The translations under genes were made by a program, and so were the position numbers. Source: a virus (Duplodnaviria > Heunggongvirae > Uroviricota > Caudoviricetes). Taken from it: 4,555 bases of DNA. The notes under the pieces are model-generated. The model was not told where the DNA came from, searched no databases, and was given only the letters and a program-made list of their open reading frames with translations. The first letter of the stretch is position 1. Each line of letters opens with the position of its first letter. Positions 1 to 4,555 of this stretch are shown one piece after another. Location of the stretch: IMG/VR virus record IMGVR_UViG_2529292828_000006, positions 1 to 4,555 of that record; one strand, 5' to 3'.

Positions 1-1
1 G

Positions 2-400
2 ACGTTTGTTATGGATAACCGGAGCAATATTTTTCCACAACCGGCAGATGTGGAACGCGTGGCGGATTATATCGCCGGTCATACTGACCCGATAACCGGC
101 CTGATTGTCGGACAGCCTGATGGTGTAAATGTCACGGTATTTGCACCAAAGGCAAAGCCGGTAAATCCACGGATTTATATATCGCCGAAGACAGCCGAAC
201 TGAAACAGGCTATTACTCACGCCATTAATACCATGTTTTTTAATGAGGTGACGCCGGGCGGTGCACTTGCCCCCTCCCGTATTATCCGTGCGGTGGCAGG
301 TGTTACCGGTCTGGATGATTTTGAAGTGCGTTTCCCGACAGAGATCCAGCGTTCGGAGAATACGGAACTGTTAACACCGGGGACAATTGAATGGCTGTAA
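2..400 (+). CDS. phage baseplate J-like protein, C-terminal portion (5' end lies outside the window)
   Basis: Frame is open from the first base of the window to TAA at 398-400, so the ATG at 11 is probably internal. Its stop overlaps the ATG of the next gene (391), suggesting translational coupling. Assignment rests on synteny (gene immediately upstream of a DUF2313 tail gene and the tail fibre, as in Mu gp47/gp48 and P2 J/I), not on a recognised motif. Confidence 0.5.
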   Translation, partial: TFVMDNRSNIFPQPADVERVADYIAGHTDPITGLIVGQPDGVNVTVFAPKAKPVNPRIYISPKTAELKQAITHAINTMFFNEVTPGGALAPSRIIRAVAGVTGLDDFEVRFPTEIQRSENTELLTPGTIEWL

Positions 401-933
401 CACCCTGGCAGACGGCCTTTCTGCAATTACTGCCGTCAGGGCTTGCCTGGAATAAAAGCCCCGACAGCAAATTATCTGCGCTGGCGCAGGCCATCAGCGA
501 CGTGATTACCACTGCGGCGGATGATGCGCGGCAAATGCTGCGGGAGCGTTTCCCGTCCACATCCCGCTGGTATCTGGGTGAGTGGGAATCATTTCTGGGG
601 TTGCCGGACTGTACCAGCGAAAACGGCACCCTGTCCGAACGCCGGCGGGCTGCCGCGAATAAAATGCGTATGACCGGCAATCTGAGTCGGCGCTTTTATG
701 AATGGCTGGCTGCGCAGTACGGTTTTACCGTCAGGCTGACGGATTCCACAGAAGGCCAGTGGGTTACGCAGGTCAATATTTACGGTATTAAAAATTATCG
801 CAACGCAACGGTGCTGGATAATGTTCTGACGCCGTTACGTGTTTATGAATCGGGTGCGCTGGAATGTTTACTGGAGAAATATAAACCCGCGCATCAGATT
901 TATAAATTTGTTTACCATGACGGAGATAACTAA
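391..933 (+). CDS. phage tail/baseplate protein, DUF2313 family (Mu gp48 / P2 gpI / e14 YmfQ-like)
   Basis: 180-aa ORF with ATG at 391 preceded by GGGGA at ~379-383. N-terminus MAVTPWQTAFLQLLPSGLAWNK... resembles e14 YmfQ / Mu gp48-type proteins as I recall them. Stop TAA 931-933 overlaps the ATG of the next gene by 1 nt. Confidence 0.7.
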   Translation: MAVTPWQTAFLQLLPSGLAWNKSPDSKLSALAQAISDVITTAADDARQMLRERFPSTSRWYLGEWESFLGLPDCTSENGTLSERRRAAANKMRMTGNLSRRFYEWLAAQYGFTVRLTDSTEGQWVTQVNIYGIKNYRNATVLDNVLTPLRVYESGALECLLEKYKPAHQIYKFVYHDGDN

Positions 934-1361
934 TGTTTTATATTGATAACGACAGCGGCGTAACCGTCATGCCGCCCGTATCCGCCCAGCGTAGTGCTAT
1001 CGTTCGCTGGTTTTCAGAAGGTGACGGGAATAATGCTATCACATGGCCCGGCATGGACTGGTTTAATATTGTGCAGGCGGAGTTATTAAACACGCTGAAA
1101 GAAGCCGGTATTCAACCGGATAAAACAAAATTAAACCAGCTTGCACTGTCCATTAAAGCCATTATGAGCAATAACGCGCTGCTGATAAAAAATAACCTCA
1201 GCGAAATTAAAATTGCCGGGGCATCAGCACAGCGTACAGCACGTGAAAATCTGGATATCTGGGATGCCAGCCTGAACAAAAAAGGCCTCGTTCAGCTAAC
1301 CAGTGCCACTGACAGCCCCAGTGAAACGCTGGCAGCCACCGCAAAATCGGTGATTTGTTGA
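933..1361 (+). CDS. tail fibre protein, N-terminal constant part (142 aa; reading frame ends prematurely, probable pseudogene fragment)
   Basis: ATG at 933 with GGAG at 922-925. C-terminal stretch KKGLVQLTSATDSPSETLAATAKSV matches the conserved N-terminal motif of P2 H / Mu S-type tail fibres. ORF ends at TGA 1359-1361, about 80 bp before the crossover site, instead of reading through it into a variable domain. Confidence 0.7.
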   Translation: MFYIDNDSGVTVMPPVSAQRSAIVRWFSEGDGNNAITWPGMDWFNIVQAELLNTLKEAGIQPDKTKLNQLALSIKAIMSNNALLIKNNLSEIKIAGASAQRTARENLDIWDASLNKKGLVQLTSATDSPSETLAATAKSVIC

Positions 1362-1439
1362 TACCCTTACATAGCCAATCAGCACTCTGGATCTCCCGTT
1401 TAAAAGCGCAAATCATGCCATGCAGGCCGGAAACAGCCA

Positions 1440-1473
1440 TTATCTAAAACCTCGGTTTACAGGAAACGGTAAA
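1440..1473. repeat. left crossover site (gix/pix-like 26-bp core site within a 34-bp inverted repeat) of the invertible segment
   Basis: 1440-1465 TTATCTAAAACCTCGGTTTACAGGAA has the 12-2-12 architecture of Gin/Hin/Pin/Cin sites and matches the Mu gix sequence as I recall it (TTATCCAAAACCTCGGTTTACAGGAA) at 25/26 positions. 1446-1473 is a perfect reverse complement of 4528-4555. Confidence 0.8.
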
Positions 1474-2410
1474 TCAGGCTTCTGGCGCATTGCAGAAAAA
1501 CCAGAACGGTGCAGATATTCCGGGAAAAGATACCTTCACCCAAAATATTGGTGCCTGCCGCGCATATAGCGCATGGGTGGATATTGGTGGCGATAGCCAG
1601 GTCTGGACAACTGCGCAATTTATTTCGTGGCTGGAGAGTCAGGGGGCATTTAACCATCCTTACTGGATGTGCAAAGGCTCATGGGCTTATGCAAATAATA
1701 AGGTCATTACAGATACAGGTTGCGGAAATATTTGTCTTGCAGGTGCTGTTGTGGAAGTTATTGGCACTTGTGGCGCAATGACCATACGCATTACCACACC
1801 GAGTACATCCAGCGGTGAAGGCATCCCTAATGCTCAATTTACTTATATAAACCACGGTGGAGATTATGCTCCTGGCTGGCGACGAGACTACAACACGAAA
1901 AATCAGCAGCCTGCATTTGCTTTAGGGCAAACAGGAAGCACTGTCGGAAATGATAAAGCTGTTGGCTGGAACTGGAATAGCGGGGTCTATAACGCAAACA
2001 TTGCTGGTGCATCGACATTAATCCTCCACTTTAATATGAATGCGGGGAGTTGCCCTGCTGTACAGTTCCGCGTGAATTATAAGAACGGCGGTATTTATTA
2101 TCGTTCAGCGCGTGATGGTTATGGATTTGAGGCTGACTGGTCTGAGTTTTACACCACAACCCGCAAACCCTCGGCGGGAGATGTTGGTGCATACACGCAG
2201 GCAGAATGTAACTCAAGGTTTATTACAGGTATTCGCCTTGGCGGTCTGTCATCTGTTCAGACATGGAATGGCCCCGGCTGGTCTGACAGGTCAGGTTATG
2301 TCGTTACGGGTTCAGTTAATGGGAACCGTGATGAATTAATTGATATAACACAGGCAAGGCCAATTCAGTATTGCATTAATGGAACGTGGTATAACGCGGG
2401 GAGTATTTAA
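1448..2410 (+). CDS. tail fibre C-terminal variable (receptor-binding) domain, cassette in the currently expressed orientation (Mu Sv-like); no convincing independent start
   Basis: Frame is open from 1448, directly after the TAA at 1445-1447, to TAA 2408-2410. The ORF track starts it at TTG 1490, which has no Shine-Dalgarno. It begins NLGLQETVN, encoded by the crossover site, exactly as the opposite cassette does. C-terminus ends ...RPIQYCINGTWYNAGSI, a tail-fibre tip motif. Confidence 0.75.
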   Translation, partial: NLGLQETVNQASGALQKNQNGADIPGKDTFTQNIGACRAYSAWVDIGGDSQVWTTAQFISWLESQGAFNHPYWMCKGSWAYANNKVITDTGCGNICLAGAVVEVIGTCGAMTIRITTPSTSSGEGIPNAQFTYINHGGDYAPGWRRDYNTKNQQPAFALGQTGSTVGNDKAVGWNWNSGVYNANIAGASTLILHFNMNAGSCPAVQFRVNYKNGGIYYRSARDGYGFEADWSEFYTTTRKPSAGDVGAYTQAECNSRFITGIRLGGLSSVQTWNGPGWSDRSGYVVTGSVNGNRDELIDITQARPIQYCINGTWYNAGSI

Positions 2411-2412
2411 TT

Positions 2413-2946
2413 ATGATGCACTTAAAAAATATTACTGCTGGCAACCCTAAAACAAAAGAGCAATACCAGCTAACAAAGCAATTTAACATCAAATGGCTTT
2501 ATACAGAGGATGGGAAAAACTGGTATGAGGAACAAAAGAACTTTCAGCCTGATACGTTGAAAATGGTCTATGACCACAACGACGTTATTATTTGTATTGA
2601 AAAGGATGTTTCAGCAATTAATCCAGAAGGCGCAAGCGTCGTTGAGGTTCCTGATATTACAGCAAATCGCCGGGCTGATATTTCGGGTAAATGGATGTTC
2701 AAAGATGGCGTAGTGATAAAGCGAACTTATACCGAGGAGGAACAGAGGCAGCAGGCAGAGAATGAAAAGCAAAGCCTGTTGCAACTTGTCAGGGATAAAA
2801 CCCAGCTATGGGACTCACAGCTACGGCTGGGTATCATTTCCAACGAGAATAAACAAAAATTAACCGAGTGGATGCTCTATGCGCAGAATGTCGAATCCAC
2901 AGACATCTCCAGCCTGCCAGTAACGTTTCCAGAACAACCAGAATGA
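2413..2946 (+). CDS. tail fibre assembly chaperone (Tfa / Mu U family)
   Basis: 177-aa ORF MMHLKNITAGNPKTKEQYQLTK...[13 protein letters not shown]...[14 protein letters not shown]...SGKWMFKDG, recognisable as Mu U / Tfa-type. ATG at 2413 lies 2 nt after the fibre stop, with GGGGAG at 2397-2402. Sits immediately downstream of its fibre tip, as expected. Confidence 0.85.
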   Translation: MMHLKNITAGNPKTKEQYQLTKQFNIKWLYTEDGKNWYEEQKNFQPDTLKMVYDHNDVIICIEKDVSAINPEGASVVEVPDITANRRADISGKWMFKDGVVIKRTYTEEEQRQQAENEKQSLLQLVRDKTQLWDSQLRLGIISNENKQKLTEWMLYAQNVESTDISSLPVTFPEQPE

Positions 2947-2949
2947 AAC

Positions 2950-2979
2950 AAGGCCCGCTATCGGGCCTTAATTTTTATT
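2950..2979. terminator. hairpin terminator between the convergent tfa genes (probably bidirectional)
   Basis: AAGGCCCG (2950-2957), loop CTAT, CGGGCCTT (2962-2969): an 8-bp GC-rich stem followed by AATTTTTATT on the + strand. The minus strand has a weaker U-rich run (TGTTTCATTC) after the same stem. Confidence 0.5.
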
Positions 2980-3502
2980 CAGGCTTTTGTGGCCATTCAG
3001 GATTTGCCGTATCCACACGGCTGACCAGAACACTGTAGCGTTCCCATGCTTCCAGTCGTGTGCGTTCCTCGTCTGTTGCCATATTCATCCTGACAGCGCG
3101 TTCCAGCTGCTGGATGACTGATTCAGCTTCGGAAAGCAATGCGGCCTTTTGTGATTCGGCTTGTTGTTGCTGTTCGTCTGCCGTATAAATCCGTTTAACT
3201 ACAGCTCCATCCTTAAACATCCACTTTCCTGAATCATCAGCGCGGCGGTTGGCTGTTATATCGGGAACCTCAACGACGCTAAAACCTTCAGGGTTAAGTG
3301 TGGAGGCATCTTTAGTGATGGCGACAATAATATTATTTGCATCGTAAACAATCTTTATTGTGTCTGGCTGAAAGTTTTTCACTTCCTCATACCAGTTTTT
3401 TCCGTCCTCAGTGTAAAGCCAGATAACTCCGTGTTTCTTTGTTAACTCATACTGTTCCAGTGTTTTAGCGTTACCCGCTTTTATGTTCTTTAAGTGCATC
3501 AT
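2975..3502 (-). CDS. tail fibre assembly chaperone, paralogous copy (Mu U' / e14 TfaE-like)
   Basis: 175-aa [51 protein letters not shown]...[25 protein letters not shown]-terminal two-thirds are highly similar to the + strand Tfa; the C-terminal third diverges. ATG at 3500-3502 is 1 nt from the stop (3504-3506) of the upstream fibre domain. Confidence 0.85.
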
Positions 3503-3503
3503 A

Positions 3504-4553
3504 TTAAACGCTCGCTACATTATACCAGGTGCCATTTATATACTTTTGAACGGGTCTGTAATAAACGCCCGCTATATTATCGGCAGAGTTGGACCCTGTA
3601 TCCTGAACATTAATACCAGACAATACATGACCTGAAGGGCACTGGAAATTCCATGTTTGCCAGTTGTTCACTCCATAATATTGCTGTGAACCAAGTCGAA
3701 CATCGTGCACGCCGATTTGTCTGAGGTAAGATGATAACCATCCTCCCCATGCAGTACCATTAATGTCACCATTCGATGCCAAAGTCGCTCCACCGGCAAT
3801 TACCGGACCTGGCGAGAAAAATGATTTGTCGTTCGGGTTAAACTGCCATAAGGCTCCATTGCCGTTATCGCCACACACATGAATACATGGTACCGGGAAT
3901 CCCTGCTGTTCAGTCAGCAAATAACCAAAGCTGACCGCGCCGGGATAGCCCTGTCCATTGCGAATGGACAAGCCCTTAACTATCGGCACGTAATGACCAC
4001 CAGGAGTGGGATTCCAGGCAAACTGCGTCTGAACAAAAGGCGCGGTGGCATTATTTAACTGGTCTGCAAATGCGCCACTTCCATCAGGAATTATTCCCTG
4101 ATGAATATATGCAACCCGCTTATAAAAATCAGCAGATGCGGGTTGAAGCCCAAATGCCAGTTGTCCATTTGAATAGAATAAAAGGACACCGTCGCCGCCC
4201 TGTTTAATACCAGTGTCGTTATCTCCGAGAGTAATGGAATTACCGCCCAGTGCGTTATCTGTACCAAGCGCCAGCCCACCATCAATTTTGGCCCCGTGGC
4301 TGACAGATATAGCACCTGTTCTCAGATTTATAGCGAATGGCCTTAATGGGCCGATATCACCGTTTTCGCCTTGTCCTTCAGCCGTCGGAATGAAATGAAG
4401 AAAATCTTCTGAACGACGGAAAATAAGACCGAAGGCATCATTGAAAATTCGCAGCGCATTCATCGTGCCAATTTTCAGTTCTCCGGTCATTTTATCGCCG
4501 GAACGCTGAACGGCGTTACCAGCCCTGTTTACCGTTTCCTGTAAACCGAGGTT
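3504..4553 (-). CDS. alternative tail fibre C-terminal variable (receptor-binding) domain, silent-orientation cassette (Mu S'v / P2 H-like tip); 5' end runs into the right crossover site and the window edge
   Basis: Minus-strand frame is open from the window end to TAA at 3504-3506. The first ATG is at 4490 (ORF-track start) but has no Shine-Dalgarno. Translation from the window edge reads [16 protein letters not shown]...; downstream [26 protein letters not shown]... and the end ...[19 protein letters not shown] resemble the P2 H / Mu S tip domain as I recall it. Confidence 0.8.
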
Positions 4554-4555
4554 TT
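4528..4555. repeat. right crossover site (inverted copy), truncated by the window end
   Basis: 4536-4555 TTCCTGTAAACCGAGGTTTT is the reverse complement of the left site; the final 6 bp (expected NGATAA) fall beyond the window. The perfect inverted match to 1446-1473 covers 28 bp. Confidence 0.75.

Follow-up and report, generated by a model that had tools for sequence, protein, structure and literature searches.

The question raised by this locus is how a phage tail-fibre gene has come to be interrupted just upstream of the invertible segment that carries its alternative C-terminal parts, and whether the interruption belongs to the prophage or to the assembly in which it was found. The window, by which we mean the whole stretch of 4,555 nt that was analysed, is the complete draft contig AQDV01000015.1 of assembly GCA_000355555.2 (WGS AQDV01) from Escherichia coli 2780750. 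Judged by its open reading frames, its Pfam matches and its collinear annotated relatives, it holds the terminal portion of a Mu/SfMu-like prophage (Table 1) and begins inside a baseplate J/gp47-type gene that is open at the left contig edge. Two inverted crossover sites of ~26 bp with a common central dinucleotide, the left one complete and the right one represented by 20/26 bp, enclose two opposed sets of a fibre C-terminal part with its assembly chaperone. Of the serine invertase the contig contains codons 1-11 only, in inverted orientation, and it stops at the other site. The element is an SfMu-like prophage whose host-range switch is of the familiar Mu G/Gin type, and the variable part Sv, which faces an invertase-side site, is in the silent position.

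Table 1. Features of the 4,555-nt window, with the basis on which each was assigned.
Feature	Position	Strand	Basis
Baseplate J/gp47-type gene, 3' end	1..400	+	Pfam Baseplate_J_C; collinear with the L001, L002 and L010 annotations
Mu gp48-type baseplate wedge gene, 180 aa	391..933	+	PF10076 Phage_Mu_Gp48; SfMu_48/Mu_48 position matches
Tail-fibre gene S constant part (Sc), remnant	933..1353	+	PF03406 Phage_fiber_2; L010 match
Inverted repeat in Sc, hairpin-forming, abutting the breakpoint	1337..1352	.	Parent comparison, folding
Breakpoint	1349..1354	.	Sc identity ends at 1353; invertase-flank identity unambiguous from 1354
gin remnant, first 32 of 33 nt, inverted relative to Sc	1354..1385	-	Identical to L010 gin
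Invertase leader/promoter region, 54 nt, inverted relative to Sc	1386..1439	-	100% identity to the L010 and FDAARGOS_1059 gin-side flank
Complete 26-bp gix crossover site, gin-proximal type	1440..1465	.	Half-site scoring 23-24/24
Left copy of exact 28-nt inverted repeat (partner 4528-4555)	1446..1473	.	Sequence
Variable fibre C-terminal part Sv	1448..2410	+	~93% similar to Mu S'
Tail-fibre assembly chaperone gene paired with Sv, 177 aa	2413..2946	+	PF02413 Caudo_TAP
Second tail-fibre assembly chaperone gene, 175 aa	2975..3502	-	PF02413
Second variable fibre part S'v, 349 codons, open to contig end	3504..4555	-	Fused to Sc in L010
Right gix copy, inner 20/26 bp	4536..4555	.	Inverted-repeat match

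A preliminary description of the locus had treated it as a pseudogene in an otherwise collinear fibre gene, and its account of the reading frames stands. The open reading frame that starts at ATG 933 (position mod 3 = 0) ends at TGA 1359-1361 after 142 aa. A second frame (mod 3 = 2) is closed by TGA 1322-1324, open over 1325-1444 and blocked by TAA 1445-1447, beyond which it leads into a variable part of 306 aa (TTG 1490 to 2410), and the third frame is interrupted at 1351 and 1372. Positions 933 and 2410 are unlinked in any frame, every frame being closed by a stop between 1351 and 1447. The TAA was also correctly placed in the outer half of the left crossover site, which reads TTATCTAAAACC-TC-GGTTTACAGGAA with its central TC at 1452-1453. 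Since the T of this TAA lies outside the central TC, where crossover takes place, it remains with the flank after inversion, and the block persists in both orientations, as had been claimed; neither variable part can be reached by reading on from the constant part of this contig, with the segment in either orientation. An in-frame read from Sc across the outer site into the facing variable part is absent from the window and present in a twin prophage, L010 (517 aa), and in the fibre protein P0139 (488 aa). It is solely through the junction described below that the contig lacks this read-through.

The lesion itself proved to be of another kind than the one proposed. When the window was aligned with the intact S genes of SfMu, FDAARGOS_1059 and L010, there was no small indel in 1325-1361; homology is collinear to 1353, halts there, is absent for ~90 nt and returns at the gix core. 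The intact twin prophage L010 (DAZZTJ010000001.1) matches the window at 4,553/4,555 positions, and does so in two blocks that run in opposite directions. With a single mismatch in each block, window 1349-4555 corresponds to L010 6860-10066 and window 1-1353 to the opposite strand of L010 11500-10148; both mismatches fall no more than 6 nt from the junction. Window 1354-1445 is identical to L010 6865-6956, a stretch that comprises antisense invertase codons 1-11, the region upstream of them and the invertase-side gix half-site, such that the order from 1354 is the reverse complement of gin nt 1-33, the 54-nt upstream region, the gin-proximal gix site and then the G segment. What remains of Sc is codons 1-140 and base 1 of codon 141, and its residues 1-138 are identical in the intact S proteins P0139 (488 aa) and P0194 (517 aa). 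The fibre gene is thus without 81 nt (75 nt of coding sequence and TTATCC) and has 92 nt of invertase flank in their place; the loss of 81 nt against the gain of 92 nt is a net +11 nt, which accounts for the apparent frameshift.

The normal order in L010 is mom, com, gin, gixR, Sv, U, U', S'v fused to Sc (the 517-aa fibre), gp48 and J. Relative to this order the window differs by an inversion of 3,283 bp (L010 6865-10147) that runs from the terminal 75 nt of Sc through gixL, the G segment, gixR and the 54-nt spacer to gin nt 1-33, and a simulated equivalent inversion of FDAARGOS_1059 (L001) recreates the junction sequence. The normal Sc tail reads ...GCAAAAGCGGTGAAAATTGCGATGG... through to TTATCCAAAACCTCGG, and the normal gin 5' end reads ...ACAAATGACCAGAATACAG...; the junction found in the window is marked by CGGTGATTTGTTGATACC, and the reciprocal junction predicted for such an inversion would be ...CCATCGCAATTT joined to TGACCAGAATACAG..., also written ...ATCCATCGCAATTTTGACCAGAATACAGA.... 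By these alignments, the break in the fibre gene is an inversion-type structural junction with a reversed gin start and not a set of point mutations. On the same comparison both stop codons are incidental, the first because the Sc frame runs into antisense invertase and the second because the TAA comes from a site that is normally untranslated. Repair would accordingly demand more than the single frameshift correction and TAA reversion that had been envisaged; the 92 nt would have to be exchanged for the missing 81 nt, that is, by re-inversion. Nor does the constant part terminate naturally at this point with the tips starting internally, as had been allowed for in the preliminary description, given that the intact homologues read through to make fibres of 488 aa and 517 aa.

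At the level of single bases, Sc identity runs through base 1 of codon 141, and invertase identity is unambiguous from gin nt 32 and can be extended back to 1349 at the price of one mismatch. Microhomology at the breakpoint is confined to GGT-A (GGTGA in Sc vs GGTCA in the reverse complement of gin), the shared A at 1353 being gin nt 33. On the minus strand the gin remnant begins with a GTG start codon at 1385-1383, and its codons, GTG CTG ATT GGC TAT GTA AGG GTA TCA ACA AAT, encode V-L-I-G-Y-V-R-V-S-T-N once 1353 is included. Ser9 of this remnant is the catalytic serine of Gin, and from the join the frame continues into antisense Sc to form an ORF of 29 codons. The complete invertase of this prophage family likewise starts with GTG and has 197 aa (start codon at 1383-1385 on the minus strand of the window and at 6894-6896 in L010) vs 193 aa for the annotated Mu Gin. 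Residues 22-24 of the L010 invertase are Leu-Leu-Cys, whereas most relatives have Leu-Val-Cys.

The junction lies 1 base past a hairpin in Sc. In the parent this hairpin is CACCGC-AAAA-GCGGTG, with a 6-bp stem, and in the window it reads CACCGCAAAATCGGTG owing to T1347, the sole non-parental base in the contig (G in the parent; Ala139Ser), which falls within the hairpin stem and 6 nt from the join. The folding energy is -8.6 kcal/mol for the parent hairpin and -4.7 for that of the window. In a consensus scan, window 1337-1363, where the Sc hairpin is followed by ATTTGTTGAT from antisense gin, scores as terminator-like, a resemblance that is probably fortuitous. A promoter scan of 1250-1560 found no consensus promoter, with the junction hairpin as its single terminator-like match, and a simple scan of 1386-1439 found no sigma-70 consensus match.

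The TAA in the crossover site had been put down to a CAA-to-TAA mutation of a site like that of phage Mu. Mu does carry TTATCC, and alignment shows it at both of its gix sites, but TTATCT is the native gin-proximal half-site in SfMu, FDAARGOS_1059, L007 and L010; it is the fibre-proximal site that carries TTATCC, translated as Ile-Gln. Sequence comparison therefore makes the TAA of the window an ordinary part of a gin-proximal site that is untranslated in its normal place, and no mutation. Because the site with T is untranslated there, the silent tip is annotated as a protein of its own, 306 aa long and starting at TTG 1490 (P0140), and the stand-alone annotated 'proteins' of 306 aa and 328 aa are silent copies. 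Both orientations occur with the exact alleles of the window, Sc with Sv as P0139 (5 contigs) and Sc with S'v as P0194 (3 contigs). That the lineage is found in both orientations with these alleles indicates that the T-bearing site is compatible with flipping.

Comparison with known systems places everything but the junction on familiar ground. The Mu G segment and Gin switch (S, U, U', S', gixL, gixR) has in common with the window the gene order gp47, gp48, Sc and invertible segment, as well as two opposed pairs of fibre tip and chaperone and 26-bp gix sites with a central TC, and nucleotide identity is ~92% over the gin flank, Sv/U/U' and the sites. In Mu, the reading frame of Sc crosses gixL (TTATCC) to enter the segment, with gin on the far side of gixR, whereas in the window Sc breaks off 81 nt short of the site and abuts an inverted gin start. 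The first tip (1474-2410) is ~93% identical to the S'-type tips of Mu, D108 and P7, and no match between the second (3504-4490, minus strand) and the S tip of Mu was returned by megablast; the differing matches suggest that the two tips of this lineage have different evolutionary neighbours. Identity to the window is 93.8% for SfMu, 95.7% for FDAARGOS_1059 and 99.9% for L010. SfMu and the SfMu-like E. coli prophages share the TTATCT gin-proximal site with the window, and the fibre alleles of the window are those of the intact P0139 (488 aa) and P0194 (517 aa). In SfMu, FDAARGOS_1059 and L010, unlike the window, the S gene is uninterrupted and the invertase (MLIGYVRVSTNDQNTDLQRNALLC...) is complete at 197 aa. 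The fibre-proximal gix site contains AAAACG-TC in FDAARGOS_1059 and SfMu (L001 4429-4454, L002 ~2929-2954) and AAAACC-TC in L010 and the window. Shigella phage SfMu and its G region have been described (PMC4406740), and the G beside the gixL core was there suspected of impairing inversion in SfMu (PMC4406740).

Homologous invertible fibre cassettes are present in P1 and P7 (C segment, Cin), e14 (P segment, Pin) and Shigella boydii (B segment, PinB). P1 and P7 match window 1482-3548 at 90-93.5%, but all of these systems have different constant parts and backbones, and none sets the 5' end of an invertase against a constant part. The segment also has a recognisable signature in assemblies. Window 1446-4555 coincides exactly with the contigs of 3,110 nt (L015-L019) in which other assemblers present this segment on its own, and in many Logan/ENA assemblies, including a metagenome scaffold, the G segment recurs as a stand-alone contig of 3,110-3,112 nt (L013-L019). 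The known artefacts around it, namely stand-alone G unitigs and fold-backs, join at the inverted repeats, whereas the window is joined in unique sequence, 81 to 92 nt beyond those repeats. One such case is L007 1-4744 (WSKO01000058.1), in which a complete invertase gene and the start of com flank the G segment on both sides in mirror image, a structure that almost certainly arose when an assembly folded back on itself at a flipping segment.

How, then, did the junction arise? The account given in the preliminary description, a small frameshifting indel in 1325-1361 together with a CAA-to-TAA nonsense change in gixL, now has next to no chance of being right. The stop codons do lie where it put them, and Mu does have C where the site in the window has T, but the alignments refute it; homology to every intact S gene stops at 1353 and restarts only at the gix core instead of continuing on both sides of a small lesion, the 92 nt between are the invertase-side flank in reverse orientation at 100% identity, the 81 nt expected are missing, and TTATCT is native to the gin-proximal site of four relatives. 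We place an even bet on the join being a mis-join, or a secondary contig, of a short-read assembly of 2013, rather than a fixed arrangement of the strain 2780750 prophage. Cultures contain both orientations of G; read pairs from cells with Sc beside Sv would lead an assembler to set the Sc contig next to the Sv end of a G-segment unitig, and that unitig would bear the invertase flank originating from cells of the opposite orientation. The replaced and replacing pieces would be near equal in length (81 vs 92 nt, a difference of 11 nt). In favour of such an origin, the window is an entire short contig (4.5 kb) of a draft assembly; its right end is the last base common to both inverted repeats, which is the end of the generic 3,110-nt G-segment unitig, and its left end lies in unique sequence. 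The one non-parental base is situated 6 nt from the join, and the junction is unique to one draft contig among the collections searched. Both breakpoints also fall within a few nt of the ends of other draft contigs. P0134, an Sc fragment of E. coli P0299917.10, terminates at residue 139, equivalent to window ~1349-1351, and the invertase fragments of draft contigs L005, L006, L008 and L009 begin at nt 35-39. These contig ends near both breakpoints probably reflect assembly-graph forks created by paralogues, and such forks would be a natural outcome in most genomes, where the 5' region of the invertase is present in ~2 paralogous copies. The fold-back contig L007, from another assembly at this locus, points the same way. 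Against a mis-join, standard assemblers rarely fuse two unique sequences seamlessly on an overlap of 4-5 nt, and both breakpoints lie in one prophage, 3.3 kb apart, bracketing the whole switch as a genuine inversion would. Moreover, the coincidences with contig ends amount to a few cases, other partial invertases starting at codons 10-38, and that the contig is unbroken through 1353 suggests that the normal continuation into the Sc tail had little support in the data.

It is a serious prospect, although we hold it to be somewhat short of an even chance, that the prophage of E. coli 2780750 carries a true, fixed and one-off inversion of 3.28 kb, which would have arisen by microhomology- or hairpin-associated illegitimate recombination with its end points in Sc codon 141 and gin codon 11/12. 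The geometry is just what a simple inversion inside one prophage would give, the contig is continuous over the join, and the breakpoint is 1 nt beyond a hairpin with a 6-bp stem, with GGT-A common to the partner. The remaining element is identical to its intact twin, as would be expected of a very recent lesion, and the contig ends at the boundary of the inverted repeat, which implies two alternative flanks for the S'v end and fits continued flipping or a second copy. What weighs against a true inversion is that it is seen in one draft contig only, which is short, has an unexplained left end and is without support from an independent assembly. The window junction was not found in 5,426 complete E. 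coli genomes, nor in species-representative genomes, viral contigs or metagenomes. The 142-aa product is known from NCBI record EMW50847.1 only, with zero Logan (independent read-assembly) sources, and its chimeric ending was not found in a collection of 15 billion proteins under five Sc alleles (four others and the window's own allele without A139S). The predicted reciprocal junction was likewise not found in complete E. coli genomes, viral contigs or metagenomes. Predicted fusions of the Sc tail with gin, built on L001, SfMu and L010 with several start offsets, were not found in the protein collection by homology or exact look-up, a weak point in that the start codon that would be called is uncertain. 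A natural mosaic boundary was considered for each side of the join and rejected, since nearly all sites with Sc 1270-1353 hold the Sc tail (1,129 vs 1,143 places) and complete genomes align across gin nt 33-38 without a break.

Two further accounts would make the invertase, or the architecture of the switch, responsible for the inversion. Serine invertases of the Gin/Cin family use quasi sites at low frequency (Cin/cixQ), and an invertase or paralogue acting on two secondary (quasi-gix) sites might do so recurrently, which would explain the assembly breaks. Both breakpoints are ~90-105 bp outside the two gix centres and other draft contigs end close to both positions, but we consider this origin very improbable. 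In a half-site scoring scan over L001, the breakpoints scored no higher than 12/24 vs 23-24 for real sites and a background of 9.0 +/- 2.2, with 14% of positions scoring at least 12; at this background level, and with no consistent shared 2-nt core (G1352 is of Sc type and T1354 of gin type), we rejected quasi-gix sites as the cause. Neither junction is fixed in the 5,426 complete genomes, and the starts of partial-invertase contigs are spread across codons 10-38. It is similarly far-fetched, in our estimation, that a genuine junction has formed here at a hot spot of rearrangement, where sites ~90-105 bp outside both gix sites recombine together. Under such a scheme the Sc site beside the hairpin would recombine with gin codons 11-13, perhaps within or due to the invertase/Fis synaptic complex, and one inversion would disable both the fibre gene and the invertase; as a low-frequency event in cultures, it would explain why unrelated draft assemblies break at both positions.

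The two leading accounts, mis-join and one-off inversion, differ in their consequences. If the join is a mis-join, the actual prophage is intact and its switch ordinary. If the inversion is real, the fibre is truncated to 142 aa in both orientations of G, and gin codons 1-11, with the catalytic serine, are split from the remainder of the gene, so that G would flip only through another Din-family or paralogous invertase acting in trans, and no fibre would be made either way; since the rest of the contig is identical to the intact twin, such an inversion would be very recent. The earlier suggestion of a decaying prophage whose switch still flips is not established. Apart from the junction the element shows 100% identity to an intact prophage, the junction may be an assembly artefact, and, were it real, gin would be split too; slow decay alongside a working switch is not the picture that the data give.

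Altogether, the lesion is no new kind of feature but a single-contig oddity, and it carries little biological weight in what is a standard host-range switch of the Mu/SfMu type. It does serve as a caution that short draft contigs near invertible segments can carry joins that mimic pseudogenisation, and that stop codons in silent fibre copies and in gin-proximal sites are normal. The stand-alone G contig of 3,110-3,112 nt, for its part, offers a handy sign in short-read data that a segment is flipping actively or is present in multiple copies. Should the inversion be real, one event would have inactivated a phase-variable gene together with its recombinase, yet this would still be ordinary prophage decay.
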